This document shows positions 3,642-64,000 of a stretch of 64,000 nt of DNA, piece by piece. The number at the start of each line of letters is the position of its first letter. The stretch's first letter is position 1. The notes under the pieces were generated by a model. The model saw nothing but the letters and a program-made list of their open reading frames with translations. It was not told the DNA's origin and ran no database searches. A program made the translations under genes and the position numbers. This DNA is from an uncultured Bacteroidales bacterium (GTDB lineage: Bacteria; Bacteroidota; Bacteroidia; Bacteroidales; GCA-2748055), in assembly GCA_963771005.1 (NCBI GenBank), contig CAVYRO010000003.1, forward strand, positions 868,657 through 932,656. The letters are read 5' to 3'.

Positions 3642-6600
3642 TTAAAAATTGAGGTTAATGCCAAAATTATACCTCCTGAATTTAGGATAGGTCCTGCGGG
3701 TGTCTGTCTGTACGGTGGGCCGGTCTGCATCGAGATCTTCGGTCATTTTTGCCCAGAGAATGAAATTGTCGCCGCTGATGATAAACCTAACCCGCGTGAG
3801 TCCGACTTTCTCTATCCAGCGGGCTTTCAGGTCGTATGCAACTTCGGCATGCTGAAGTTTGAGATAAGCCCTTGTGGTTGCCACATAACCGCTGGTGGAG
3901 CTTGTATTGAAACGCAGACCGGGATTGATGGCACTTGCCGTATTGTCAAATTCGGGCGACCATGCGTATTCCATATTCCATGGATATACAACCGAATACT
4001 GGTTGGCAAATGCTCCACGGTAAGTTCCCACCTCACCTTCAATATTGAATACGCCGTAAAAGCGGGTTGTAAGGCTGAGATTTTTATAGCTTACTCCGGC
4101 TGCAGGAGCATAGGAATACTGCGGCCTTGAAGGATAACCGTACGGTACATCGTCGTTGTCGTCTACAATGCCGTCAGAATTGAAATCCACCCTGGCAAAA
4201 TCACCGGGAAGAAGTTGCGAATTCGTAATTCCCTGCACCGTATTATATATATCGTTCCATGTGAGTATCGGATGTTCAGACTGGTTCAGGATCACCCTGG
4301 GCTGGTCGATCTGGTATCCGGCCTGTTTCTGATAGGAGGGTTTGAGAATGGGATCGCCTCTTTCAATGATCTTATCTTTTGCATAAGCTATGGAATAGGA
4401 AAACCAGTAGTTCAATCCCCTGGGTGAAGTATTGGAAAAATATGCTTCGAATTCCCAGCCATGCATATCCACTTCCCCGATATTAGCAGATACCGGGTTC
4501 ACCCCGATATAGTCGGGGATGACCCGTTCATTTCCTGTAACGAAGATATTCGTCCTTTTTTCCGTGAAATAATCATAGGTGAGCCTGATCCTGTTATCAA
4601 AGAACCCGGTCTCAATACCAAAGTCCTGTTTGTGAGAAGTTTCCCATTGGATATCCGGATTTGGAATGACTCCTTCATAACGCAGCGGATAGGCATTCTG
4701 GAGATAGGGATATCCAAATCGCATAATATCCTCGGAGGAGGCTGAAGTAGTTGGTGGCAGGACAACCCAGCTACCTACATACAACCACCTTGCTATTCCT
4801 TCGTCGCTACCCACAAGTCCGTCGGAATACCTGAACTTCAAGTTGTTCATCACCGGTTTGATATTTTCAAAGAATTTTTCATTGGATACCACCCAGCCAA
4901 CCGCCATGGAGGGGAAGAAGCCGAACCGGTAATCCCTGGAAAATTTCTCCGACCCGTTGTAAGCGCCATTCAACTCAAGGAGATAACGCCTGTCGTACGC
5001 ATAAACGGCCCTGCCAACCCAGTCTTCCCGGTAGCTCGGGAAGTTGCTGCCGGTTGCCCTTTCCTGCCTGCTCATCAGGATGAGTCCGCTAACGGAATTT
5101 TTCCCGAAGTCGCGCGCATAATTGAGAGAGGCCTGGTAATAAAGGGACCGGTATACATTCCGGTTAGCGCTTTCGGTTTCGTAGGAATTGGGAAGCTCCA
5201 CATAATTATACCCGGTGGGGGGAAGGTCCTCGGGAATCTGATAAAATGTATATTTCGATTCCAGGTCCTTGATGTCAGCCTGTGACATACCGGGTGTAAT
5301 TTCATCCACAATAGCCGGGCTGATCCATTTTGTCAGTTTCCCGTAACCCTGGATATTGGGACCTGATGAATAGGCTGTATTGTCATAGGAAAGTTTTGCA
5401 TTGAAGGAAAGCCCTTCCGTAATGAAATCCATTTTCTGATCCAGCATGAAATCAGTTGTCACATTGGTTGTCTTCGTGACATCCACTCCGAAAAAATTGA
5501 AGGCATAGATACCATTGCTGAACCTGTCGTAAAGGGCGTAATCGGCCCAGGTGCCATCGGAATACTGGGCAGGCCAAAGATCCGGTGGTGCCGAATATAA
5601 ATAAGGCCATCCCGCCCATTTATCCCCCCCGGGTCTTTTCTGGATAGAGTGAAAACCTGAGAGGTTGGCGCTGAAGCGGGTAGTGGGGGTAATATCAAAA
5701 TCGACGTTACTTCTGAAATTGACGCGGTCGAAAGCAAAGCTGGGATCGTATCCCTGCCCGTTGTCCTTTATATTCAGGATATCGTTTTCATTAAAATAGG
5801 CGAGTGATCCGAAATATTTGACAACCTTAGTTCCTCCCGTCAAGGTCATGTTAAGGTTCTTGTCGATGGCATAATCGTTTGTAAACTGATCGACCCAGTC
5901 CACACTTGGAAGATATTCCGGATATTCCTGGGATTTGTAGAGTTCCAGCCAACGGTTTGGAACGACACTGTTCCAGGAAGATTCGGACAATGGAAGTTCG
6001 TTGAGAATGGCGTAGTTTTTCATGAGGTTCGCGGTATATGAACCCTCCCTTACCGGGATTCTTGAGATCGTTTTTGCGGTGGTGGTAAAGTCAACACTGA
6101 GTTTCGCCTTGCCTTCCTTACCCCGGATGGTCGTAATAAGAATAACTCCGTTGGCACCCTTCACCCCGAAAACGGCGGTCGCGGAAGCATCCTTCAATAC
6201 GGAGATGCTTGCTACTTCATAGGGGTTTACATCATGCAGCGGACGCTCGACCCCGTCGACCAGGACCAGCGGTTCAGCATTATTCCAGGTTTTCTTTCCC
6301 CGGATTAACAACTGGGCATAATCGTCGTCCTCGCCCGCTCCCCCGGGAACCCCCGTGGTGGAGATCGTAATGAGGCCGGGCAGGGCGCCGGTAAGTGCAT
6401 TTCCAAGGTCACTGCCCTGGGTTCCCTGAAGAATAACATCACCTGTCGTCTGTGAGATGGCACCCACTACACTTTCTTTCTTCTGGGCTCCATATCCGAC
6501 GAAAACAATCTCATCCAGTTCTGTCACGCTGGCTACCAGACCTACCAGTAAGTTTCTCTCTTTGCCAATTGTGACGGATTTGGAGGTATAGCCAATGAAG

Positions 6601-15063: not shown

Positions 15064-15913
15064 GAATTTGTTGAGTTGTTGAGTTGTTGAGTTGTTGATT
15101 GAAGAGATTCTACGTAGTACTGAATTTGTTGAGTTGTTGAGTTGTTGAGTTGTTGATTGAAGAGATTCTACGTAGTACTGAATTTGTTGAGTTGTTGAGT
15201 TGTTGAGTTGTTGATTGAAGAGATTCTACGTAGTACTGAATTTGTTGAGTTGTTGAGTTGTTGAGTTGTTGATTGAAGAGATTCTACGTAGTACTGAATT
15301 TGTTGAGTTGTTGAGTTGTTGAGTTGTTGATTGAAGAGATTCTACGTAGTACTGAATTTGTTGAGTTGTTGAGTTGTTGAGTTGTTGATTGAAGAGATTC
15401 TACGTAGTACTGAATTTGTTGAGTTGTTGAGTTGTTGAGTTGTTGATTGAAGAGATTCTACGTAGTACTGAATTTGTTGAGTTGTTGAGTTGTTGAGTTG
15501 TTGATTGAAGAGATTCTACGTAGTACTGAATTTGTTGAGTTGTTGAGTTGTTGAGTTGTTGATTGAAGAGATTCTACGTAGTACTGAATTTGTTGAGTTG
15601 TTGAGTTGTTGAGTTGTTGATTGAAGAGATTCTACGTAGTACTGAATTTGTTGAGTTGTTGAGTTGTTGAGTTGTTGATTGAAGAGATTCTACGTAGTAC
15701 TGAATTTGTTGAGTTGTTGAGTTGTTGAGTTGTTGATTGAAGAGATTCTTACGTAGTCCTGAATTTGTTGAGTTGTTGATTTGTTGATTGAAGAGATCCT
15801 TACGTAGTCCTGAATTTGTTGAGTTGTTGATTTGTTGATTGAAGAGATTCTTACGTAGTCCTGAATTTGCTGAGTTGTTGATTTGTTGATTGAAGAGATT
15901 CTCACGTGGTCCT
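15064..15913. repeat. 58-bp minisatellite: 11 identical copies (15064-15701) plus 4 variant copies of 59, 51, 51 and 51 bp
   Basis: The unit is GAATTT(GTTGAGTT)3GTTGATTGAAGAGATTCTACGTAGTACT. Unit starts fall at 15064, 15122, 15180 ... 15644, a constant 58-bp phase visible as a 2-nt shift per 60-nt line. Later units change to ..CTTACGTAGTCCT and replace one GTTGAGTT with GTTGATTT. Confidence 0.95.
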
Positions 15914-16299
15914 GAATTTGTTAAGGCTGCGCTCACCGAGCGGGACCCTGACTTGAAATGAATTATGGTTCGGCTTCCCTCAACATTTCGGTAATCTTTG
16001 CATTGAAAAGTCATCATATTATAATCTGGTGAAGTCATACCTTCGTTTAAGCGCATAGTTTGGGCTTCTTCCTTTGTAATACGTCTTAGTATCAACTGGG
16101 ATCCACCCCCACCGTCGACGCCGACCGCCCTTAATGGGATTCACCCCCCAAATCTCAGCGTCCCCTTTTTGACTTTTTGATGAAAAGTTATCAACACTAC
16201 AGATTATCAGTACGTTGGATAACCCCGAACTCATTGTTTTGGTGATTTGGTGAAGTGGAAGAGGAACGCGGATTTGACGGAAAAATACGAATCCCGGAA

Positions 16300-16410
16300 G
16301 AATTTGTTGATTTGTTCGATTTGTTGCGTTGTTGATTGAAGAGATTCTTACGTAGTCCTGAATTTGTTGAGTTGTTGATTTGTTGATTGAAGAGATTCTC
16401 ACATGGTCCT
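16300..16410. repeat. Two further degenerate copies (60 and 51 bp) of the 58-bp unit, ending in the same junction as the main array
   Basis: The sequence reads GAATTTGTTGATTTGTTCGATTTGTTGCGTTGTTGATTGAAGAGATTCTTACGTAGTCCT followed by GAATTTGTTGAGTTGTTGATTTGTTGATTGAAGAGATTCTCACATGGTCCT. Both arrays terminate in GAATTTGTTAAGGCTGCG(C/T)TCACCG. Confidence 0.85.
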
Positions 16411-16448
16411 GAATTTGTTAAGGCTGCGTTCACCGGCCGGGGAACTGC

Positions 16449-16585
16449 CTTTAAATGAAGAACGGTTCGGCTACGCTCAGCGGCTGGCGTTCTATCTTTA
16501 AATGAGGAACGGTTCGGCTACGCTCAGCGGCTGGCGTTCTATCTTTAAATGAGGAACGGTTCGGCTACGCTCACCGACCGGGGGC
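16449..16585. repeat. 47-bp tandem repeat (about 2.9 copies) carrying the core GGTTCGGCTACGCTCA
   Basis: CTTTAAATGA(A/G)GAACGGTTCGGCTACGCTCAGCGGCTGGCGTTCTAT occurs at 16449 and 16496, with a partial copy at 16543. Related cores (GGCT[ATG]CGCTCA) occur at about 15034, 15925, 15978, 16425 and 16607. Confidence 0.85.
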
Positions 16586-19514: not shown

Positions 19515-19692
19515 TGAAGAATTTGGAGTACTGTTTGAGATTGTTTGAGATTGTTTGAGATGGTTTGAAAGAAGAGGAACGCGGATTTGACGGATTTTGA
19601 CGGATTCCGGTAGCTATCGGAACGGATTTTGGATAGTTGACTCTTCATTCACCAAATCACCAAATCACCAAATATTCTTCATCCGCGTTCTA
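19515..19692. repeat. Mosaic intergenic repeat element (10-mer run, D module with hairpin, 8-mer run)
   Basis: The order is (TTGTTTGAGA)x3 plus TGGTTTGAAA, then GAAGAGGAACGCGGATTTGACGGATTTTGACGGA. Next comes the palindromic TTCCGGTAGCTATCGGAA, then (TCACCAAA)x3. The element closes with ATCCGCGTTC, the inverted complement of GAACGCGGAT. Confidence 0.85.
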
Positions 19693-21849
19693 TTCCCCTC
19701 TATAAACCTTCACTTCAATACCCGAAGGCCTCACCCTATCATGGTAAATGCGTTGGGTGGCGCGAATAAAATCCCCTTCACCGCAATGATAAATATCGGT
19801 AAACTGCTGTGGATTCCGGTCCACGAGCGGGAACCATGAATTCTGGACCTGTATCATGATCCTGTGTCCTTTCTGAAAACAATGCGCAATATCCGGCATC
19901 TCAAAGGATACCCGGGTCACCTCTCCCGGAGTAAAAGCTTCCGGTTTTTCATAGCTATTCCTGAATTTTCCGCGCATAACATCGCCCCTGATCAACATCT
20001 CGTAACCGCCCGAAGGGACCATGCCGTTTTCACCCGGCTTCATTCTCAGGTTCAGGGGGAAAGACGTCGATGAGCTTAACTACATAGTCTGCATCTGTCC
20101 CTGAAGTGCTAACATAAAGATCCACGTTGAGCGGACCCGTTAGCGTTAGGGATTTCGTGAGAGGCTGTGATTCATAGACCAATACGTCCGGCCTGCTGGA
20201 AGCAAATCTCTGGTCTGCAGTCATATAATCTGCTGTTCTTTTAAAATGGACGCCGGCAACATAAGGAACGGGATTTTCCGGATCAGAGACATATTCGTCA
20301 TAGCTTTCGGCAGAGTGGGGCGGTGTGAAGGAAAGACTTCCTCCGGGTTGAAGGTATAGAACAGAATCCGTCGTATTCCTGGGAGGCCATTCTGAGAAAG
20401 AATGCCAGTCGTTTGTCCCGCTTATAAAGACGGAAGCTTCCGGGAGATCCATTTTTCCTTCATCCTTCATGATAGAAGTTGAAGAATTTCATTTGCAGCT
20501 GGTTGAAATAATCCGTTGTATTCTCACCCCAGGAAACGTCGCCCAATTGCTCACCGGCACTCTTAGCCCACTGGTGATGAGACCATGGCCCCATTATGAG
20601 CCGGTTACTTTTCCCGGAGTTCTGGGACTCAATGGTTTTATAAGTCTGCAAAGTCCCAAACAAGTCCTCAGCATCATACCAGCCCCCGACAACAAGCACC
20701 GCAGGACGGAGATCACTGAGGTACCGCAGGGGATTTCTGGCTTTCCAGAATTCATCATAGACAGGATGATCCATCATCTCCGACCAGAACCGTACCGTAT
20801 CGCCGAAATATTTTTTCTCAGCGTTGCGGATGGGGCCCAGATCCAGGAAAAACCGGTAATTATCGCTGCTTTTGAACTCATATGTTCCAGGCCATTCCCG
20901 GATAAGACCGTGCCGGGGAATGCCAAAGGCCGAATAAAAGGAGAAGGCATCCGAAAGAAAGAAGGCCCCATGATGGTGCCAGTCGTCGCCCATGAACCAG
21001 TCGGTGACGGGAGCCTGTGGAGAGACGGCCTTCACTGCGGGATGTGCATCCGGCAGTGCCATGGTAGAGTAGAAACCCGGATAGGATACCCCCATGATTC
21101 CAACCCTGCCGTTATTATTTTTTACATTTTTTACCAGCCAGTCTACAGTGTCCCAGGTATCGCTGCTCTCATCCGTTTCCTTCCTCTTTTTCAGTTCGAT
21201 ATAAGGTCTGACATCCACGAAGGTTCCTTCACTCATGAACCTTCCTCGCACATCCTGCAAAACGATGATATATCCCTCCTCCAGGAAATGGGAATATTCG
21301 GAAAGCATACTCGAAAAGCCCGTTTCCGATGTTTCGATACGGTAAGGTGTACGGGTAAGGATTATGGGATAGTAATTCAAATTGCTTTTGGGGGAATAGA
21401 TGGAAGTATACAGACGGACTCCGTCTCTCATGGTGATGTAGACGTCCTTTTTGTCATACTGTGTCCTGATGAAAGTCGTATCCTTCCAGTCGACTGTAGA
21501 ATCCTGCCTTGTAAAATCGACTTTATATTTTACCCCGGACTGTGTCATACTACCGGTGATCAGGGCCGCTTTTTCTTCATACCGGCCCCTGTAGGTCAGC
21601 CCGCCCTGCCGCCAGAAAAAGTAAAACTGATTTCCGGTGAGGGAGATGCTGTCAAGTGAGATAGCATACGCATTCTGGTCCGGGCTGTCGAAATCACCTG
21701 AGAGCTTGTAGCCATCTGCCCGGATATGGAGGTTCAGGTGAAGTTCGGGACCCTTCAGGAGGGCATTCCAGTCGCCGGTTATGTCCTGCGCTGCGGCCGG
21801 GAATAGAATGAAGGCCAATAGAACCAGGAATATGAATGTTCTTTTTCAT
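19690..21849 (-). pseudogene. CocE/NonD-family (S15, X-Pro dipeptidyl-peptidase-like) hydrolase, interrupted by three frameshifts
   Basis: Three consecutive ORFs (20460..21818, 20030..20470, 19690..20043) together form one S15 protein, with nucleophile context GVSYPG and C-terminal domain MLIRGDVMRGKFRNS. The junctions are at about 20466 (FFNFY / KDEGK) and in a G5/C5 run at 20055-20059. The signal peptide MK(K)RTFIFLVLLAFILFPAAAQ is restored only if the T5/A5 run at 21842-21846 is shortened by 1 nt, starting from the ATG at 21849. Confidence 0.8.
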
Positions 21850-22152: not shown

Positions 22153-23563
22153 ATGAAAACCACCAATCAACTCCTGGCATATTTGTCCATCGGGCTGGCC
22201 GCGACGGCAGGAAGCTGCACAACGGTTGACAGGGAACCCGGCAAACCCAATATTGTCATCATCTTCCTCGATGATTCCGGATGGTCTGATTTCAATCCCT
22301 TTACAAAAAACGATTACCCAACACCCAATGTCGACCGGCTGGCTTCGGAGGGAACCCGTTTCCAACAGTTTTACGTACCGCAGGCCATCTGTTCCGCCTC
22401 GAGGGCGGCCCTTCTGAGCGGGTGTTATCCCGGGCATACGGGCGTCACCGGAGCTCACGGTCCAGGCGCGCTGGGTCTCGATCCGAAATTCGCCACCCTC
22501 GGTGAGGTGCTGCAGAAGGACGGGTATGCAACGGCAGTCTTCGGGAAATGGCATATCGGCGATCAACCGCAAACGCATCCCTGGAACCGCGGTTTCGATG
22601 AATCGTGCGGACTGATGTACTCGAACGATATGTGGCGGTTTCATCCTGAGAACCCGGAGAAATGGGGAGAACATCCGCTGCAATTCTGGGAGAACGATTC
22701 TGTGAGTATTGCGGATGTGGATTCGGCCGACCAGAAAATGCTTACTACCTGGTATACGGAACATGCGGTCAACTTCATCAACAGGCATAAAGACGGACCT
22801 TTTTTCCTGTATGTTCCCCACAATATGCCCCATGTGCCGATTTTCTGCAGCGATAAGTTTGAAGGCAAATCCGGGAAGGGAAGATATGCCGATGTGATCA
22901 TGGAACTTGACTGGTCGGTGGGTGAGATTACAAAAGCCCTGCGGGAAAACGGGCTGGAGAAGAATACAATGGTGGTCCTCACCTCCGATAATGGCCCCTG
23001 GATCGTTTATGGCAACCATGCCGGCAGGACGCCGTTCCGGGAAGCAAAGGGAACTTCATTCGACGGTGGGACACGTTCCGCATGTATCGTAAAATTTCCC
23101 GGGAACGTCCCTGCTGGAAAAGTCTCAGACCAGGCTTTCTGCACCATCGATCTTCATGCCGACGATCTGTCACATTACGGGAGCTGAACTGCCATCCAAT
23201 CCCATCGACGGGATGGATGTGACAGACCTCGTCATGTCGAAGAAAGGAGCTGTAAATCCTCATGATTACTATGCTTTTTCAACCGGAAAGCAATTCGAGG
23301 CCGTGATGAGTGGCGACGGGCACTGGAAGCTTCATCTTCCGCACGATTACCGTACTCTTGGGATAGCCGGCAAAGACGGGATGCCAGGCCGTTACCGGCA
23401 GGATGAGATCGGATTGTCGCTCTTCGATATGGTCAATGACCCCAATGAAACGGAAAATGTGATAGGTAAGTACCCGGAGATCGCTGAAAAGCTGGAAGGG
23501 TACGCCCGGAAACACAGGGAGATGTATTATGCAATGGAGGAGAAAGAAGAAGCGCTTCAGTAA
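22153..23563 (+). pseudogene. Formylglycine-type sulfatase, frameshifted near 23150-23156
   Basis: Conserved sulfatase motifs are NIVIIFLDDSGW, CSASRAALLSGCYP (C-x-A-x-R) and FGKWHIG. ORF 22153..23187 reads ..AFCTIDL and ORF 23156..23563 continues MPTICHITGAELP in another frame. The usual sulfatase junction is TIDLMPTI, which implies one extra C in CTTCATGCC. Confidence 0.9.
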
Positions 23564-23583
23564 TGTTAATGCAGAACATGGAT

Positions 23584-23820
23584 GGACGCGGTTTAATTGT
23601 ATGAAATGGTTTGAAATGGTTTGAAATGGTTTGAAATGGTTTGAAATGGTTTGAGGTTGTTTGAACTCAATTCACCAAATAGTCTTCATCCGTGATTATC
23701 CGCACAAATCCGTCAAATCCGTGTTCTTCTTCCTCTTCCTCCCCAACTTCACCAAATCACCAGATCACCAAATTCTTCGGGGAGTTTCACCACAGATTTC
23801 ACAGATTATCACAGATTAGC
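23584..23820. repeat. Mosaic intergenic repeat element between convergent genes
   Basis: The order is (ATGGTTTGAA)x5, then TCACCAAAT, then ATCCGTGATTATCCGCACAAATCCGTCAAATCCGTGTTC (D module, reverse orientation). It finishes with TCACCAAATCACCAGATCACCAAA and TTCACCACAGATTTCACAGATTATCACAGATTA. Confidence 0.85.
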
Positions 23821-23845
23821 GGAAGATGATGCTCCCGTCCTTGAT

Positions 23846-31744: not shown

Positions 31745-32340
31745 ATGGAAACCGCTCCGCGGTTTATGGTTTATCCCGCCTCCTACTGCAGGTAGAATTT
31801 CAAAACCCCGACGTCTGTTTCATGGAACCAAATCCTGTCCGGATATATAAAATTTCTAAGATTAAACTCATTCCAGGGTTTTGAAATTCAACCTGCAGCT
31901 AATTAATGGGCACCGCTCCGCGGTGGGTTCAACCTGGGAATGAGATCCGACCTATGAATTAAATTTGCATTTTTTCCCTGATGAAACCCATTTATAGCAT
32001 GGGAACCGCTCCGCGGTTTATGGTCAACCCTGCGTCCTATGCAGGTAGAATTTCAAAACCCCGACGTCTGTTTCATGGAACCAAATCCTGTCCGGATATA
32101 TAAAATTTCTAAGATTAAACTCATTCCGGGTTTTGAAATTCAACCTGCAGCTAATTAATGGACACCGCTCCGCGGTGGGTTCAACCTGGGAATGAGATCC
32201 GACCTATGAATTAAATTTGCATTTTTTCCCGGATGAAACTCATTTATAGCATGGGAACCACTCCGCGATGGATTCAATCCCGCGAATGAAATCCATCGCA
32301 ACAATGGGTTTGCAATAACCGGGAATGAGATCCGAGTATG
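31745..32340. repeat. 252-254-bp tandem repeat, two near-identical copies plus a degenerate third; each full copy contains a 23-nt inverted repeat
   Basis: Unit starts (ATGG[GA]AACCGCTCCGCGGTTTATGG) are at 31745 and 31999, and in degenerate form at 32251. The arms CTGCAGGTAGAATTTCAAAACCC (31786-31808) and GGGTTTTGAAATTCAACCTGCAG (31876-31898) match at 22 of 23 positions. The same pair recurs at about 32040-32061 and 32128-32150. Confidence 0.9.
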
Positions 32341-35721: not shown

Positions 35722-36258
35722 GAGCAGATTGTTTCAGGGGGAGTTTTACCACAGATACCACAGATTATCACGGATTAAGAGGGGTTGTTTCAGGTTGTTT
35801 CAGGTTGTTTCAGATTGTTTCAGATTGTTTCAGGTAGTTTCAATTCCATTCAACAAATCAACAAATCAACAAATCAATAAATCAACAAATTCTTCAGGTG
35901 GTTTCAGTGGGAGTTTTACCACAGATTTCACAGATTATCACAGATTAAGAAAGGTTGTTTCAGGTTGTTTCAACTCCATTCAACAAATCAACAAATCAAC
36001 AAATCAACAAATTTTTCGGGTGGTTTCAGTGGGAGTTTTACCACAGATTTCACAGATTATCACAGATTAAGAAAGGTTGTTTCAGGTTGTTTCAACTCCA
36101 TTCAACAAATCAACAAATCAACAAATTCTTCAGGTGGTTTCAGTGGGAGTTTTACCACAGATTTCACAGAATATCACAGATTAAGAAAGGTTGTTTCAGG
36201 TTGTTTCAACTCCATTCAACAAATCAACAAATCAACAAATCAACAAATTCTTCGGGTA
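35722..36258. repeat. Higher-order composite array: about 4.5 copies of a 114/122-bp unit built from the C, 10-mer and 8-mer modules
   Basis: The unit is TTCTTCAGGTGGTTTCAGTGGGAGTTTTACCACAGATTTCACAGATTATCACAGATTAAGAAAGGTTGTTTCAGGTTGTTTCAACTCCATTCAACAAA(TCAACAAA)n. Phase marks at 35890, 36012, 36126 and 36248 give periods of 122, 114 and 122 bp, depending on octamer count. The first unit carries (GTTGTTTCAG)x5. Confidence 0.9.
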
Positions 36259-36266
36259 CCTGGTAC

Positions 36267-39439: not shown

Positions 39440-40166
39440 ATGAACCTATCCGGAAATAAAATTCTGATCACCGGGGGAGCCTCAGGCATTGGCCTGGGCC
39501 TGGCGGAAAAATTCATTGGCGAGGGAAATTCGGTCATAATTTGCGGTCGGCGCGAGCCGGCGCTTGATGAGGCATCGGCGTTGTTTCCACCGGTAATTAC
39601 GCGCAAATGTGACCTGTTGGTGCAGGCCGAGCGCGAGGCATTGTTCAACTGGATATCCGATGAGCACAGCGATGTCAATGTCCTGGTTAATAATGCAGGT
39701 ATACAGCAACGGATGGGGATCCATGATGAAAATTTTTTCCCGCGGGCAAAAGAGGAAATACGGATTAATGTTGAAGCCCAGGTCCATTTGATCTCTCTTT
39801 TCCTGGGGTTGAAGTCGTTGGATACGATCCTCAATGTGACTTCCGGGCTCGCATTTGTTCCCATGACCCATGCTGCAGTTTACTCTGCCACAAAAGCCTT
39901 CTTCCATTCCTTTCACGGTTTCCCTCAGGGAGATCGTCAGGCAGGATAACATAGAGGTGATCGAGATCATTCCCCCGGCAGTGAATACGGATCTCGGGGG
40001 GAAGGGCGTGCATAGCAATGCCACCCCTGTCGGTGAATTTGCCGAAGCAGTTCTAAGTCAGCTCAGGCAGGGGAAGACAGAGATCACTTATGGTTTCACG
40101 GAAGGCATGCCGGCGTCTTCTCCTGATGATTTGGAGAAAATATTCAGGAGGATGAACGGAATTTAG
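39440..40166 (+). pseudogene. SDR-family oxidoreductase, frameshifted at the T3 run 39911-39913
   Basis: The cofactor motif is ILITGGASGIGLGLA and the active-site motif is YSATKAF. ORF 39440..39949 reads ..ATKAFFHSF and ORF 39870..40166 continues TVSLREIVRQDNIEVIEIIPPAVNTDLGG in another frame. Confidence 0.85.
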
Positions 40167-40520
40167 GTGTTGTTTGAAATGGTTTGAAATGGTTTGAAAG
40201 AAGAGGAACGCGGATTTGACGGATGTTGACGGATCTCACGGATTTTGGATAGTTGACTCTTCATTCACCAAATCACCAAATTCTCCGAGTTTACCACAGA
40301 TTTCACAGATTATCACGATACCGTGATTATCCGCACAAATCCGTCAATCCGTTTCCTCTCCACTTCACCAAATCACCACTTCACCAAATCACCAAATCAC
40401 CAAATTTCCGGGAGTTTCACCACAGATTTCACAATTATCACAGAAATTGTTTCAGTTGGTTTGAACTCCATTCAACAACTCAACAACTCAACAAATTCTT
40501 ACCAGATCCGTGTTCAGAGT
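40167..40520. repeat. Mosaic intergenic repeat element showing the full module grammar, including D and inverted D modules
   Basis: The order is (GGTTTGAAAT)n; GAAGAGGAACGCGGATTTGACGGATGTTGACGGAT; then (TCACCAAA)n; then ACCACAGATTTCACAGATTATCAC. Next comes the inverted D module (CCGTGATTATCCGCACAAATCCGTCAATCCGTTTCCTCTCC); then (TCACCAAA)n; CACCACAGATTTCACAATTATCACAG; and TTGTTTCAGTTGGTTTGAACTCCAT. The element ends with (TCAACAAC)n and ATCCGTGTTC. Confidence 0.85.
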
Positions 40521-41875: not shown

Positions 41876-42005
41876 GGCTTTTTTTTTGGTGACCTGGTAT
41901 TACCGGGTGACTTTAAATCGGTACGAATGTACTACAATGTAACAAGCTCTTCAATCAACAAATCAAAAAATTCTTCAGGTGACGGTGCGTGTGGTCTTCT
42001 TGCCC

Positions 42006-42137
42006 GGGCGTAACCTTACCATGGGCATAACCTTACCATGGGCGTAACCTAACCACAGGCATAACCTACCACGGGCGTTACCTAACCACGGGCGTAACCT
42101 TACCACGGGCGTAACCTTACCACGGGCGTAACCGTGG
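42006..42137. repeat. 17-bp tandem repeat, about 7.8 copies
   Basis: The unit GGGCGTAACCTTACCAC and variants start at 42006, 42023, 42040, 42058, 42073, 42090, 42107 and 42124. The array is preceded at 41950-41985 by TCAACAAATCAAAAAATTCTTCAGGTG, the 8-mer/junction motif of the main family. Confidence 0.9.
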
Positions 42138-42627
42138 CTAATACAATGAAACCCCTCCGGGGTGCCGGGAACACGATCATCATATATTATGCGCGTGACC
42201 TTACCTCGGGAGTAACCATGAGTAATACAATTAAACCGCCTCCGGGGTGCCGGGAACACGATCATCGTATACAATGGACGTTTTGGTGGGTAATACAATT
42301 AAATCGCCTCCGGGGTGCCGGGAACACGATTATCATATATTATGCGCGTGACCTTACCACGGGAGTAACCATGAGTAATACAATTAAACCGCCTCCAGGG
42401 TGCCGGGACCACGATCATCGTATACAATGGACGTTATGGTGGGTAATACAATTAAATCGCCTCCGGAGTGCTGGGACACGATCATCGTATATTATGTGCG
42501 TGACCTTATCACGGGCGTAACCATGAGTAATACAATTAAACCACCTCCGGGGTGCCGGGACCATGATCATCGTATACAATGGACGTTATGGTGGGTAATA
42601 CAATTAAATCACCTCCTGTGGCAGATC
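42138..42627. repeat. 152-153-bp tandem repeat, about 3.2 copies, each made of two related half-units
   Basis: Both half-units begin TAATACAATTAAA(C/T)CGCCTCCGGGGTGCCGGGAACACGAT. Half H1 ends CAATGGACGTT(T/A)TGGTGGG, and half H2 ends TTATGCGCGTGACCTTACCACGGGAGTAACCATGAG. Phase marks are at 42221, 42374 and 42526. Confidence 0.9.
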
Positions 42628-42711
42628 TTCTCTTCCCTTTTTACTTTTTACTTTTTACTTTTGCCTTGGATTTTCTTCCCTCGGCGGGGTTTCAGATCCC
42701 TGAAACAATCT

Positions 42712-50138: not shown

Positions 50139-51755
50139 TTAAGCCCTCCATGGCCTGCTTCTGTCTTTTGCTCCGTTATGAGCATCAATGGCCAGGTTGA
50201 CATCATCCACGATCTGGAAATCGTACATTCCCACGCAGATGAAATCTGCGCCGCTGTTGAAGCACCATGGGAAGGCATCTTTCGGGTGCAGGGAACCGGC
50301 TGCAAGGGTTTTGAATGCAATCCAGGGCTGATGCAGGGTTTCCATGTAGCGGACGGTTTCGTTGGGATCGAAGCAATACATGTTATCATGCCAGGTGGGA
50401 GCAGTAGCTGACCAGTAATCGTGAGTGTGAAGGGTTTTCATCCAGAAGTCGTTTTCGAGTCCCAGTTCCACACATTTTTTAATGGTCTCGATCTTATGTG
50501 CCCCGATACCTATGGGCAGGTTGTTTTTTCTGAGGAGATCCATGATCCTGACGATCTTGTCCACTTCGCCGTTCATGATGTAGTAATCAGCTGTTTCGCC
50601 CTGGATATAACCGGCGTTAGCACCGTCGTCGATCGCTTTTTTGACGATATCTTCGTATTTATCAAAGGGCATTGGTTTGATCCCATTGCTGTAATCGAGT
50701 CCTGCGCAGTCGGAGATAAACTGGATCTTTCCGTACCCTTCGTCCCAGTACTCCCTCATTAGAGGCATCACGACAGGGTTTGACAGGAGAGTATTCACGC
50801 CGCATTGTTCTGCCAGCATCAGGGTCTTGAAAATGCGGTCCTTCTGGTGGTAATGCAGAACAAGGGAAGAGACGTAGATAAGGTCACGGGAATGCACATA
50901 GCCACTGAGCAGATTACCGCCGAGAATGATCTTTGAAGCTTCGAGGGTTCCCAGCATTCCGCGGGGGACGCTACCTTTAATGTTCGCAGCTTCATCGAAT
51001 TTCGTGCCTTTCAGGGAGGCAAGGGAGAGGCGGTCACCGCCGGCCTGGATCTGCTGCACGAACCTTTGCGTCGGACCGGTGGCTGCATCAACGAGGTTCT
51101 GTTCCTCCACGCTTTCCATCCGTGTCTTTCGTATGGCACCGTATATAACTGCACCCAGAAAAGGAAGGGTGGCCAGGTGTTTCAGGGCTTCGCGCCTCCT
51201 GATCTGCCTGATATTTCCTGTGACCGTCTCCGTCTCCGGTTGCCCCGAATCCAGCTTATGCACGGGTTTGGAGAAGGCTGAACGAAGAAATCCGTCGATT
51301 CCGAGGAATTTTCCCGTCGGAAAGAACATCAGTATGGCTAGGGCCATGATCTCGAGAAGATCTTTACTGATGAAAAGATAGGAGCCTTCGCGGAAAAACC
51401 CGGGGTCGCTGAAGAATGGCGGATGCGCGACGTAATACAGGAAAAGGAGGGACATTGCAGCCACCTGGGAAATTTTCGTGAGCAGTCCCAGAAATAGTCC
51501 GAAGCCGATCAGTACGAGCCCTGCAATATTCAGGAAATCGATGATACTCACTGCGGAAGGACTCGAGCCCATCGCGTTGAAGAGCCCTGAAAGCGGTCCT
51601 GTGGAGCTCTGTAGAAAGCCTGCGGAGGTCCAGGAGGGATCAAGAAGTTTGACGAGTCCTTCATACAGAAAATGCCAGCCAATGCCGATTCTCAGTATCG
51701 TAAGAAAATAAAATAACCGTTTCTGATTTTCAGGGAAAAGTCCTGTAGTTTTCAT
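50139..51755 (-). CDS. DoxX-family membrane domain fused to a roughly 330-aa uncharacterised soluble domain
   Basis: The N-terminal 160 aa resemble DoxX (ILRIGIGWHFLYEGLVKLLDPSWTSAGFL..). A central RRREALKHLATLPFLGAVIYG segment (Tat-signal-like or TM) follows. The C-terminal domain has no motif I can assign (..IILGGNLLSGYVHSRDLIYV..IGIGAHKIETIKKC..). Confidence 0.6.
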   Translation of the reverse strand: MKTTGLFPENQKRLFYFLTILRIGIGWHFLYEGLVKLLDPSWTSAGFLQSSTGPLSGLFNAMGSSPSAVSIIDFLNIAGLVLIGFGLFLGLLTKISQVAAMSLLFLYYVAHPPFFSDPGFFREGSYLFISKDLLEIMALAILMFFPTGKFLGIDGFLRSAFSKPVHKLDSGQPETETVTGNIRQIRRREALKHLATLPFLGAVIYGAIRKTRMESVEEQNLVDAATGPTQRFVQQIQAGGDRLSLASLKGTKFDEAANIKGSVPRGMLGTLEASKIILGGNLLSGYVHSRDLIYVSSLVLHYHQKDRIFKTLMLAEQCGVNTLLSNPVVMPLMREYWDEGYGKIQFISDCAGLDYSNGIKPMPFDKYEDIVKKAIDDGANAGYIQGETADYYIMNGEVDKIVRIMDLLRKNNLPIGIGAHKIETIKKCVELGLENDFWMKTLHTHDYWSATAPTWHDNMYCFDPNETVRYMETLHQPWIAFKTLAAGSLHPKDAFPWCFNSGADFICVGMYDFQIVDDVNLAIDAHNGAKDRSRPWRA

Positions 51756-51881
51756 TTCGTTGGTTGATAGGTTGGGTAATGAAAAGGCAAGTTACGATCA
51801 ACGGGAACAGTTCCGGAAAAAATGAGACGGAAAATTGACGGAATGGGGAGCTATTTGGAACGGGTAAAAATTGGGGGAAGG

Positions 51882-52476
51882 AATGTAGAACACGGATCCG
51901 GAAGAATTTGTTGATTTGTTGATTTGTTGATTTGTTGAATGGAGTTGAAACCACGTGAAACCATCTTTCTTAATCTGTGATAATCTGTGCAATCTGTGGT
52001 TAAACTCCCCGAGGAATTTGGTGATTTGTTGATTTGTTGATTTGTTGAATGGAGTTGAAACCACGTGAAACCATCTTTCTTAATCTGTGATAATCTGTGC
52101 AATCTGTGGTTAAACTCCCCGAGGAATTTGGTGATTTGTTGATTTGTTGATTTGTTGAATGGAGTTGAAACCACGTGAAACCATCTTTCTTAATCTGTGA
52201 TAATCTGTGCAATCTGTGGTTAAACTCCCCGAGGAATTTGGTGATTTGTTGATTTGTTGATTTGTTGAATGGAGTTGAAACCACGTGAAACCATCTTTCT
52301 TAATCTGTGATAATCTGTGCAATCTGTGGTTAAACTCCCCGAGGAATTTGGTGATTTGTTGATTTGTTGATTTGTTGAATGGAGTTGAAACAACCTGAAA
52401 CAATCCGAAAGAAGAGGGAACACGGATTTGACGGATTCCGATAGCCATATAGCCATCGGAATTCGTGTTCTACATT
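51882..52476. repeat. Higher-order array: 4 full copies plus 1 partial copy of a 110-bp unit, the reverse complement of the 35722-36258 unit type, bounded by imperfect 19-bp inverted repeats
   Basis: GAATTTG phase marks fall at 51904, 52014, 52124, 52234 and 52344, exactly 110 bp apart, and copies 2-4 are identical. The left flank is AATGTAGAACACGGATCCG (51882-51900). The reverse complement of the right flank (52458-52476) is AATGTAGAACACGAATTCC, matching at 16 of 19 positions with the first 13 perfect. Confidence 0.9.
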
Positions 52477-52486
52477 AATCTTCCCT

Positions 52487-52927
52487 TCATTCCTGGTCCA
52501 GCGGCACGATCATCACCGGTATTTTGGATTTATTGATGATATTTTTGGCATTGCTGCCTACGAAGGTCTCATACAGGATGCCGTGGTCATGGTGGCCGAT
52601 GATGACGAGGTCGGTTTTCAGACGCTCCGATTCCGCCAGTATCATTTCCGTTGTGGCGCCCTGTATAAGGAGGCCTTCGGCATCGATGCCGTTCGCTTTC
52701 ATAAGGGAAATGAATTTTTGCAGGAGCCGGTGTTCCTCCCTGAGATCATCGGCACGCACATCCCTGATATATTGTGGTCCTACCTCGTAACCCACAAAAT
52801 CGGGATCCGGAGCAGCTACATGCAGTATCCATACCTTTGCCCCTGACATTTCAGCCAGTTCCGAGGCCATGTCAATAAGACGTGAAAATTTTTCTTCAAA
52901 ATTAACAGAGACAAGAATATTTTTCAT
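52487..52927 (-). CDS. Universal stress protein (UspA family)
   Basis: The 146-aa protein begins MKNILVSVNF and contains ..VWILHV.. and ..DLVIIGHHDHGILYETFVGSNAKNIINKSKIPVMIVP. Confidence 0.85.
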   Translation of the reverse strand: MKNILVSVNFEEKFSRLIDMASELAEMSGAKVWILHVAAPDPDFVGYEVGPQYIRDVRADDLREEHRLLQKFISLMKANGIDAEGLLIQGATTEMILAESERLKTDLVIIGHHDHGILYETFVGSNAKNIINKSKIPVMIVPLDQE

Positions 52928-63329: not shown

Positions 63330-63340
63330 GATCGTTATAG

Positions 63341-63723
63341 AATGGTTTCGGGTTGTTTGAAATGGTTTGAGGATTGTTTGAAATGGTTTGAAATGGTTTG
63401 AGGTGGTTTGAAATGGTTTCAGGGAGTTTAACCACAGATTTCACAGATTATCACAGATTAGGAAGAAGAATATTTTCCAGATTGTTTCAGATTGGTTTGA
63501 GGATTGTTTGAAATGGTTTGAAATGGTTTCAGGTGGTTTCAACTCCATTCACCAAATCACCAGATTCACCAAATTCTTCCGAGATCCATGTTCTTTCCTC
63601 TTCCACTTCACCAAATCACCAGATCACCAAATCACCAAATATTCTTCATCCGTGATTATCCGCACAAATCCGTCAAATCCGTGTTCCTCTTCCTCTTCCT
63701 TTTCCACTTCACCAAATCACCAC
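63341..63723. repeat. Mosaic intergenic repeat element (10-mer runs, C module, two inverted D modules, 8-mer runs)
   Basis: It contains (GGTTTGAAAT)-type runs, GGGAGTTTAACCACAGATTTCACAGATTATCACAGATTA and TTGTTTCAG runs. AACTCCATTCACCAAATCACC follows. ATCCGTGATTATCCGCACAAATCCGTCAAATCCGTGTTCCTCTTCC also occurs at 23690-23735, identical except for one C/T difference in the trailing CTCTTC/TTCTTC. Confidence 0.85.
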
Positions 63724-64000
63724 ATTCATATTATCATCATAATCCGAATTCAGAAAACTTTTTTTCCAAAAAAAAAATCAATGATTTTCGTCATAATTTT
63801 CTTCTGTTCTTTGACTTTTTTTCGCTATGCCCGTATATAAACAAAGCATACATCAGAAAAACAACCGGTATTGTGAGTTAATATGTTGATTTAAAGGATA
63901 TATGCAGATAAGGTTGTCCGGTGAAATAAACTGTGTATATGATACAATATCTGAGACGCGCCATACTTTTTCTTACTACAGTTTGTATTCCGGTCGGTAC

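Follow-up and report, generated by a model that had tools for sequence, protein, structure and literature searches.

The 595-bp block at positions 51882-52476 of a 64-kb chromosomal stretch from an uncultured Bacteroidales bacterium (GenBank assembly GCA_963771005.1, contig CAVYRO010000003.1, positions 868,657 to 932,656; the whole stretch is the window below, and all within-genome counts are confined to it) was confirmed as a real feature at the coordinates at which it was first described. It lies between two minus-strand genes, one for a universal stress protein (Usp; 52487-52927) and one for a 538-aa fusion protein with an N-terminal DoxX domain (50139-51755). We suggest, with slightly better than an even chance of being right, that the block belongs, as one copy, to a non-coding mosaic repeat that is specific to this lineage and akin to the BIME, BOX and BrickBuilt elements. 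Seen locally, such a copy would be selfish or neutral DNA of an ordinary kind. On the sense strand, the Usp stop codon is followed by 10 nt, a terminal hairpin, a linker, a tandem array, the second terminus and a further 126 nt before the DoxX start; the preliminary description, which placed the block directly upstream of that start, needs correction on this point. The parts of the block, from the Usp side to the DoxX side, are as follows.

52456-52476, no strand: Usp-proximal arm of the terminal inverted repeat, TCGGAATTCGTGTTCTACATT, its outer end 10 nt past the Usp stop codon (52487-52489)
52418-52470, no strand: terminal hairpin, a short iteron palindrome made of GAACACGGAT + TTGACGGAT + TCCGAT, loop, ATCGGA + ATTCGTGTTC
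52406-52417, no strand: purine-rich linker CGAAAGAAGAGG
52296-52405, minus strand: unit 1 of the 110-bp array, with the ancestral GGTTGTTTCAGGTTGTTTCA form; 52354-52403 equals 36077-36126 at 100% over 50 nt
51966-52295, minus strand: units 2-4, identical 110-bp copies (Tandem Repeats Finder, alignment)
51903-51965, minus strand: partial fifth unit, consisting of decamers, ACTCCAT, four TCAACAAA and TTCTTC
51882-51902, no strand: DoxX-proximal arm of the terminal inverted repeat, AATGTAGAACACGGATCCGGA; the orthologous DoxX upstream region starts about 8 nt beyond

The array (51904-52405) was resolved by Tandem Repeats Finder into 4.6 copies with a period of 110, 98% matches and no indels. In alignment A1, units 2-4 were identical, unit 1 deviated at three positions, and the partial fifth unit merged into the left terminus, which agrees with the three identical copies and the 110-bp period reported before. 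Each identical unit consists of two GGTTTCA decamers, ACTCCAT, three TCAACAAA followed by TCACCAAA, the linker TTCCTCGGGGAGTTTAA, three CACAGATT decamers and AGAAA. The two termini form an inverted repeat of 21 nt with 18 matches (86% complementary), and its outer 13 positions are perfect, as had been noted. The exact 13-mer AATGTAGAACACG occurs at two places in the 64 kb, which are the two ends of the block, one on each strand, against a chance expectation of about 0.002 exact matches that we calculated from the window size. The hairpin described at the right end was also recovered: it is built of the inverted pairs 52431-52448/52449-52466, nested in 52418-52428/52460-52470, and reaches -22.4 to -23.8 kcal/mol, with z of -3.1 to -3.4 against shuffled sequences. 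Its right arm is one 9-nt unit short. The leader GAAGAG before GAACRCGGATTTGACGGAT is also present in the blocks at 19566 and 40195, and variant leaders are found at 23726 and 63686. The flanks GGGGGAAGG and AATCTTCCC form no direct repeat, and thus this copy has no target-site duplication.

Because the unit length of 110 cannot be divided by three and the open reading frames (ORFs) inside the block, of at most 112 aa, are those of chance only, we consider the block non-coding. A repeat-protein reading was rejected on the same indivisible period. A CRISPR-like reading was rejected as well, since there is no repeat-spacer build and the sole matches, to CRISPR-DR46, had E = 9.

The block does not stand alone. 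At least seven mosaic blocks assembled from common 8-10-nt modules were found in the window, covering about 6% of it by our arithmetic, all located at gene 3' ends and in both orientations. Among the modules, (TCACCAAA)n and (TCAACAAA)n are octamers, whereas (GTTTGAAATG)n, (GGTTGTTTCA)n and (CACAGATTNN)n are decamers; GAACRCGGAT-TTGACGGAT units complete the set. Their order is kept among the blocks, and the modules are often more than 90% identical. Distant blocks have near-identical segments in common: 98 nt at 92% (23668/63628), 44 nt at 100% (19622/40238) and 65 nt at 94% (19541/40170). The following blocks illustrate the family.

35722-36262, plus strand: sister array with the composite unit in opposite orientation; period 114-122, 3.2-3.3 copies, 91-94% matches
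23568-23830, plus strand: AATGCAGAACATGGAT end, (GTTTGAAATG)n, TCACCAAA, four inverted CGGAT iterons ending in ATCCGTGTTC, and a TCACCAAA/CACAGATT module
19523-19690, plus strand: member between GAACGCGGAT and ATCCGCGTTC
40165-40515, plus strand: member bounded by GAACGCGGAT (40206) and ATCCGTGTTC (40506-40515) and containing every type of module
63340-63730, plus strand: member with tandem right-type ends at 63584-63593 and 63677-63686; 63628-63725 (98 nt) is 92% identical to 23668-23765

The sister array lies between two convergent stop codons, and its sole terminus has decayed (GGGTACCTGGTAC). The array of the block had been described as its reverse complement (35722-36258), and on the reverse complement we obtained stretches of 96-123 nt that match at 89-94%, as well as one of 50 nt at 100%. 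The core GAACACGGAT, with up to one mismatch, occurs 19 times in the window versus 4.5 times expected, and as inverted pairs it closes the blocks 19523-19690, 23568-23726 and 40206-40515. In the degenerate form GAACRYGGAT the core closes at least five window blocks. The longer terminus recurs once: a second long-form terminus, AATGCAGAACATGGAT, is located at 23568, 5 nt past a stop codon, and is identical at 14/16 positions. Within the 64 kb, other blocks thus share the core and, once, the longer form, but the exact AATGTAGAACACG was found nowhere else there. The blocks occur in convergent and co-directional gaps and in 0/11 divergent gaps. Their orientation relative to transcription is variable; in the block at 19523-19690, the minus-strand gene 19690-20043 has its stop codon in the CTA of GTTCTAT, and the orientation is reversed compared with the block at 51882-52476.

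The same site was found to be empty in related genomes. The closest non-identical proteins to the DoxX-fusion product are 81-82% identical, and the contigs of these relatives keep the gene order S8 peptidase, Usp, DoxX and DUF998. The spacer between Usp and DoxX is 731 bp in the window versus 157-203 bp (157, 185 or 203) in the four orthologous loci L105, L106, L107 and L113, from which the element is absent, and no family module was detected in six related loci with a total of 61.6 kb. This is a comparison between species at 81-82% protein identity, in which the flanks are too diverged to give exact breakpoints. In alignment A2, the conserved DoxX upstream region resumed about 8 nt past the end of the element, with the common motif TTCCGTCAATTT located about 85-95 nt upstream of the DoxX-fusion start (window about 51830-51845, L105 about 5905-5916, L106 about 5906-5917). 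This region is probably the native regulatory region of the DoxX-fusion gene. Because the upstream homology resumes beyond the element end, the element is positioned between the Usp stop and an intact ancestral DoxX upstream region.

We suggest the following course of events. The CGGAT-unit palindrome (53 nt, 10 nt past the Usp stop) would have arrived or arisen behind Usp in the lineage of the window, and the adjoining composite unit would then have multiplied on the spot, either by unequal recombination or by replication slippage. The amplification was probably recent and local, because three identical units lie next to one unit of ancestral type that matches the array at 35.7 kb. Recent duplication or gene conversion may keep copies at different loci similar. 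The array itself would need no function, and the hairpin beside the stop codon would be at most a terminator or a 3'-end stabiliser of the S8-Usp transcript, while the DoxX promoter region would be left intact. Spread of the family may depend on a trans-acting factor that recognizes CGGAT units rather than on cut-and-paste transposition that leaves duplications.

The 110-nt units, taken singly, fold like shuffled sequences on either strand (z of +0.8 to -1.3), and a reading of the unit as a structured RNA was rejected. The shuffles were exceeded by the terminal hairpin and by the pairing between the distant termini alone, and the whole block as RNA had z = -4.1. A search of Rfam found no family at gathering score, with chance-level matches only for the block (E of at least 1.3). 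Eight palindrome loci from other genomes likewise had no Rfam family at gathering or E-value thresholds, and the matches to the hairpin only were miRNA models. Each 110-bp unit contains a TG-extended sigma-70-like sequence, GTGAAA-18-GATAAT, on the plus strand (52065-52094 and three other units), antisense to both flanking genes. These promoter-like hexamers are oriented away from DoxX. When the element was removed in silico, the joined site gave a modest hairpin followed by UUUUU (-12.3 kcal/mol, z -1.7); this weakly suggests that a terminator may have pre-existed at the insertion point, though the test is weak and the argument partly circular.

An explanation as cis-regulatory RNA, with the array or hairpin serving as attenuator, small RNA or promoter module for the DoxX-fusion gene, would have in its favour the position between co-directional genes, the fold of the whole block, the sigma-70-like sequence in every unit and the promoter activity of BrickBuilt repeats (PMC4596501). 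However, the orthologues keep the gene pair and the upstream motif without the element, the units fold like shuffles and match no Rfam family, the orientation is inconstant, and the promoter-like sites face away from DoxX. With the conserved upstream region lying downstream of the element, the promoter or attenuator effect on DoxX that was first proposed finds little room, and it would surprise us if this explanation were correct.

The terminal motif has a much wider distribution than the array. We selected genomes by the exact 19-mer GAACRCGGATTTGACGGAT, one genome per GTDB species, so that the set represents only part of the family. This 19-mer was found in at least 103 stretches versus about 9 expected for random sequence by our arithmetic. 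Among the matches listed, more than 100 species of at least 14 phyla carry the motif GAACRCGGAT-TTGACGGAT; these phyla include Bacteroidota (with Ignavibacteria), Chloroflexota, Acidobacteriota, Planctomycetota, Bacillota, Cloacimonadota, Calditrichota, Spirochaetota, Hydrogenedentota, Actinomycetota, Desulfobacterota, Pseudomonadota and the archaeal Methanoperedens/Methanosarcinales. Three carriers are cultured: Lunatibacter salilacus CUG 91308, Flavobacterium sp. SUN046 and Methylobacter tundripaludum OWC-G53F. An inverted partner was present within 600 nt in 74 of the 106 matches listed, mostly at 78-102 nt. The typical form is an inverted array of 80-100 bp, made of a 9-10-nt unit and adjoining a stop codon, with the flanks AATA/GAAC...GTTC/TATT or AATG/.../CATT (slashes mark the palindrome ends). 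The arms have 2-4 units of wwSACGGATt, spaced by 9 nt (120 times) or 10 nt (51 times). An ORF stop lies within 31 nt in 31/58 palindromes, and 18/58 are within 5 nt of a stop or overlap it. Many palindromes have an A-run before and a T-run after them (AAAAAATA ... TATTTTTT), like bidirectional terminators. In L025 (Flavobacteriales), L014 (Cloacimonadota), L024, L058 and L103, CGGAT units were observed beside CACAGATT decamers, CTGCTTTCT/AGAAGGCAG or CGCAAAG-type repeats. Because other genomes pair CGGAT units with tandem modules in this way, mosaics of 8-10-nt mini-repeats are not unique to the genome of the window.

The inner arms of the same element were only slightly more complementary than those of unrelated elements (0.26 versus 0.21, p = 0.013), and G:T and A:C mismatches were about equally frequent (101 versus 110). 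With so little extra complementarity and no excess of G:T, it is the unit and its spacing that are conserved, not base pairing or RNA wobble. Selection would then appear to maintain motif and spacing and not the pairing within hairpins, as if a protein recognized the units.

Searches for the means of spread were largely negative. At the palindrome ends or after extension, 37/58 elements had no target-site duplication and the rest had at most 4 nt, as expected by chance; a search up to 80 nt further out was positive only for nested elements that are described below. When 1244 ORFs from 103 loci were clustered, only housekeeping families were obtained (ABC transporters, histidine kinases, dehydrogenases), and none was enriched. 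Far-apart pairs of ends enclosed ordinary genes and no transposase, so that no autonomous element was seen among them. The canonical palindrome had no BLAST match in plasmids or phages, and a scan of the viral contigs of IMG/VR gave one match; for these reasons, we do not consider the element phage-borne. For the window-type junction CAAATTCTTCN{2,3}GATCCRTGTTC, the matches listed for JGI metagenomes amounted to one, which lies inside a gene and is due to chance. A search of open-access text by repeat sequence returned unrelated primer-type matches or nothing. Therefore, the family of the terminal motif is apparently undescribed, having neither an Rfam family nor a paper that could be found by sequence in open-access text.

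In this connection, a wider reading is possible, which we offer tentatively and hold to be doubtful. The termini could belong to an undescribed cross-phylum family of inverted wwSACGGATt arrays (80-100 bp, AATR/GAACRCGGAT...ATCCGYGTTC/YATT) at stop codons, which would be recognized by a protein and would spread without duplications, possibly at the tips of palindromes. The genome of the window would then show a hypertrophied state of the family, its iterons and companion mini-repeats having expanded into minisatellites. Insertion at palindrome tips (terminators, centres of transposable elements) would explain the variable palindromic flanks and the nesting of the arrays in ISL3-type and other elements.

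[quoted passage not shown] In three Anaerolineae genomes (L006, L007 and L035), the array is inside an element of about 170 bp at non-orthologous sites, with duplications of 8-9 bp, TAAATTGTG/TAAATTGTG in L006 and TACACTAA/TACACTAA in L007. The L006 terminus GGGTCTCTGGGAATTCCCGTG agrees at 18/21 positions with the terminus GGCTCTCTGGGAATTAGCGTG of an annotated ISL3 element of Acaryochloris. MITEs of Acidobacteriota (L053 and L072), which also have duplications of 8-9 bp, carry a central CGGAT inverted array, in L053 with other termini and a 9-bp duplication, TTAACTTAA. The termini of ISPpu12, a member of the ISL3 family on pWW0 (L111, 34398-34421 and 37737-37760), are GGGTATACGGATTTAATGGTTGAT and GGGTAAGCGGATTAAATGGTTGAT; they contain ACGGATTT, that is, the iteron core RCGGATT, and agree with the common palindrome end ATAGAACACGGATTTGACGGATT at 14/22 positions. 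This last likeness may be a coincidence. Termini of the GGSTCTYTGGGAATT type together with an 8-bp duplication were found only in the Anaerolineae elements of L006 and L007 and not at the window copy, whose termini do not start with the ISL3-type GGSTCT.

These observations bear on the architecture proposed in the preliminary description, which was that of a MITE or foldback element. The block is not a strict foldback element, because the repeats of its 110-bp core run in direct order and inversion is limited to 21 nt at each end. A classic MITE would be a non-autonomous element moved by a DDE transposase that is encoded elsewhere and binds the GAACACGGAT termini, with the minisatellite as cargo as in BrickBuilt. 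In support of it are the inverted termini, which recur in related form in other blocks of the window, the empty site in relatives, the small non-coding length of 595 bp, the 8-9-bp duplications around CGGAT arrays in L006, L007 and L053, and the terminal likenesses of the L006 element (18/21) and of ISPpu12 (14/22). On the other side, there is no target-site duplication at the window copy, nor at the 58 palindromes elsewhere. The 57 window proteins that were scanned include no transposase, integrase or Y1 (RAYT-type) domain, and the ISPpu12 transposase had no tblastn match in the window or in any fetched locus. Moreover, the terminus of the sister array has decayed and the GGSTCT start is lacking. 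The proposal is therefore supported in part only, and we regard a classic MITE as unlikely. Another explanation holds that the arrays are used by the host, the CGGAT units and perhaps the other modules being iterated binding sites for a roadblock terminator, a nucleoid protein or a partition-like factor. The regular 9/10-nt spacing of wwSACGGATt with 2-4 units per arm, the conservation of motif and spacing rather than pairing, and the spread over at least 14 phyla would all agree with it. However, no candidate protein has emerged and no gene family is enriched beside the elements; the relatives of the source genome do without the arrays; and most of the 110-bp array is made of other modules, which were not found elsewhere in the metagenome scan. 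Since a transposase would also bind a motif, this view partly overlaps with that of a MITE, and we rate it as quite improbable.

It is hardly credible that the array or its copy number was produced by mis-assembly of repetitive reads. Frameshift-split genes suggest a noisy long-read assembly, and the independent short-read contig L001 (Logan ERR11594398) breaks inside the hairpin. Nevertheless, this contig exactly reproduces the Usp-proximal 68 nt of spacer and hairpin, seven blocks have a consistent module order, and related elements are present in hundreds of independent assemblies, including those of isolates. Because of the break in L001, the copy number of the array rests on one assembly. 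Each split gene appears as neighbouring ORFs, three for an S15/PepX peptidase and two each for a sulfatase and a short-chain dehydrogenase (19690-21818, 22153-23563, 39440 to about 40166). Either these genes are pseudogenes or the long reads introduced indel errors; such errors in the assembly are therefore possible, and this bears on the trust that can be placed in exact repeat counts.

[quoted passage not shown] It belongs to the same phylum, is strictly intergenic and has a minisatellite of variable copy number between flanks ending in inverted repeats; many of its copies lack one or both ends, and target-site duplications are inconsistent or absent (PMC4596501). In contrast, three mini-repeats combine into the 110-bp higher-order unit of the core in the window, CGGAT iterons form the termini, and there is no known insertion sequence to match. 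BOX elements of Streptococcus pneumoniae (boxA-(boxB)n-boxC) are modular too, with mutually pairing ends and variable internal tandem modules (PMC10969869). The window block has a build of this kind, with complementary end modules and 3.2-4.6 units at two loci; compared by build alone, it differs from BOX in having at least four kinds of 8-10-nt modules instead of one type of internal module. BOX elements cluster and nest with other repeats, and SPRITE elements are terminator-like.

REP/BIME and REPIN sequences, which are associated with RAYT Y1 transposases, resemble the family as extragenic palindromes at gene 3' ends that form mosaics and leave no target-site duplications (PMC3733652). The window family likewise combines palindromic units with other motifs at gene 3' ends. 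REPs are GC-rich palindromes of 20-40 bp whose tag is fixed as GTAG or CGTC, and they evolve together with a RAYT gene (PMC3733652). The window terminus AATGTAGAAC holds GTAG, but other copies have ATAG, ATGG or AGAG; in addition, the arms here are tandem 9-10-nt iterons with poorly conserved pairing, and no RAYT was found among the 57 window proteins. With ISL3 elements and their MITEs, the likeness consists of the iteron core in the ISPpu12 termini and the central CGGAT array of the Anaerolineae MITE, whereas neither the GGSTCT terminus nor the 8-bp duplication is present in the window element or in the common 80-100-bp palindromes. The TAACTGA heptamers and cyanobacterial STRR are intergenic tandem repeats in distant phyla including Bacteroidetes, with no evident transfer mechanism, and close relatives have shorter spacers free of repeats (PMC4679880). 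They differ in that direct heptamers are located mostly just upstream of starts, compared to inverted 9-10-nt arrays at stops. Eukaryotic foldback (FB) elements have inverted arms of short tandem sub-repeats that are hundreds of bases long. This likeness fits the cross-phylum CGGAT palindromes only, as the array in the window is direct with 21 nt inverted at each end.

Several points weigh against our view of the block as a lineage-specific mosaic repeat. The mode of spread is one that we infer, and because related arrays sit in true MITEs elsewhere, the family may instead have spread by transposition. The copy number comes from a single assembly that carries frameshifted, split genes. A within-species empty allele was not found, the nearest relatives being at 81-82% protein identity. 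The hairpin is followed by CCCUCUUCUUUCGG without a T-run and was not flagged by a simple terminator scan. Finally, the avoidance of divergent gaps is statistically non-significant at these numbers.

The block accounts for 0.6 kb of non-coding DNA, and mosaic repeats of this kind break short-read assemblies and inflate spurious ORF calls. The recurrence of the terminal motif across phyla, in bacteria and some archaea, would imply either a promiscuous small mobile element with a mobilising enzyme or a shared DNA-protein recognition at gene ends. Either of these wider readings would be useful for the annotation of terminators and repeats in metagenome-assembled genomes, and the cultured carriers make the wider question testable.

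The window itself is an ordinary segment of a Bacteroidota chromosome, with SusC/SusD genes, glycoside hydrolases and peptidases, and it contains several other repeats. The largest repeat block (15064-15922 and 16310-16419) has a 58-bp unit in 14.5 copies (97% matches), followed by 51-bp variants, and is based on (TTGTTGAG)n. It is located in a 1.68-kb gap from a LytTR response regulator gene to a formate/nitrite transporter gene, with one GAACGCGGATTTGACGG unit at 16264. At 16449-16573, a 47-bp unit in 2.7 copies (GGTTCGGCTACGCTCAGCGGCTGGCGTTCTATCTTTAAATGAGGAAC) with scattered GGCTNCGCTCACCG motifs, also at about 15030, 15925, 16422 and 16600, seems to be a separate repeat family. A 252-bp unit in 2.1 copies (95% matches) at 31745-32267, past a gene for a pyridoxal phosphate (PLP) enzyme of Cys/Met metabolism, has no relation to the CGGAT family. 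At 42005-42662, in the gap between an M20 peptidase gene and a GH30 gene, a 17-bp unit in 7.6 copies (CGGGCGTAACCTTACCA) is followed by a 153-bp unit in 3.2 copies, and these form a separate family.

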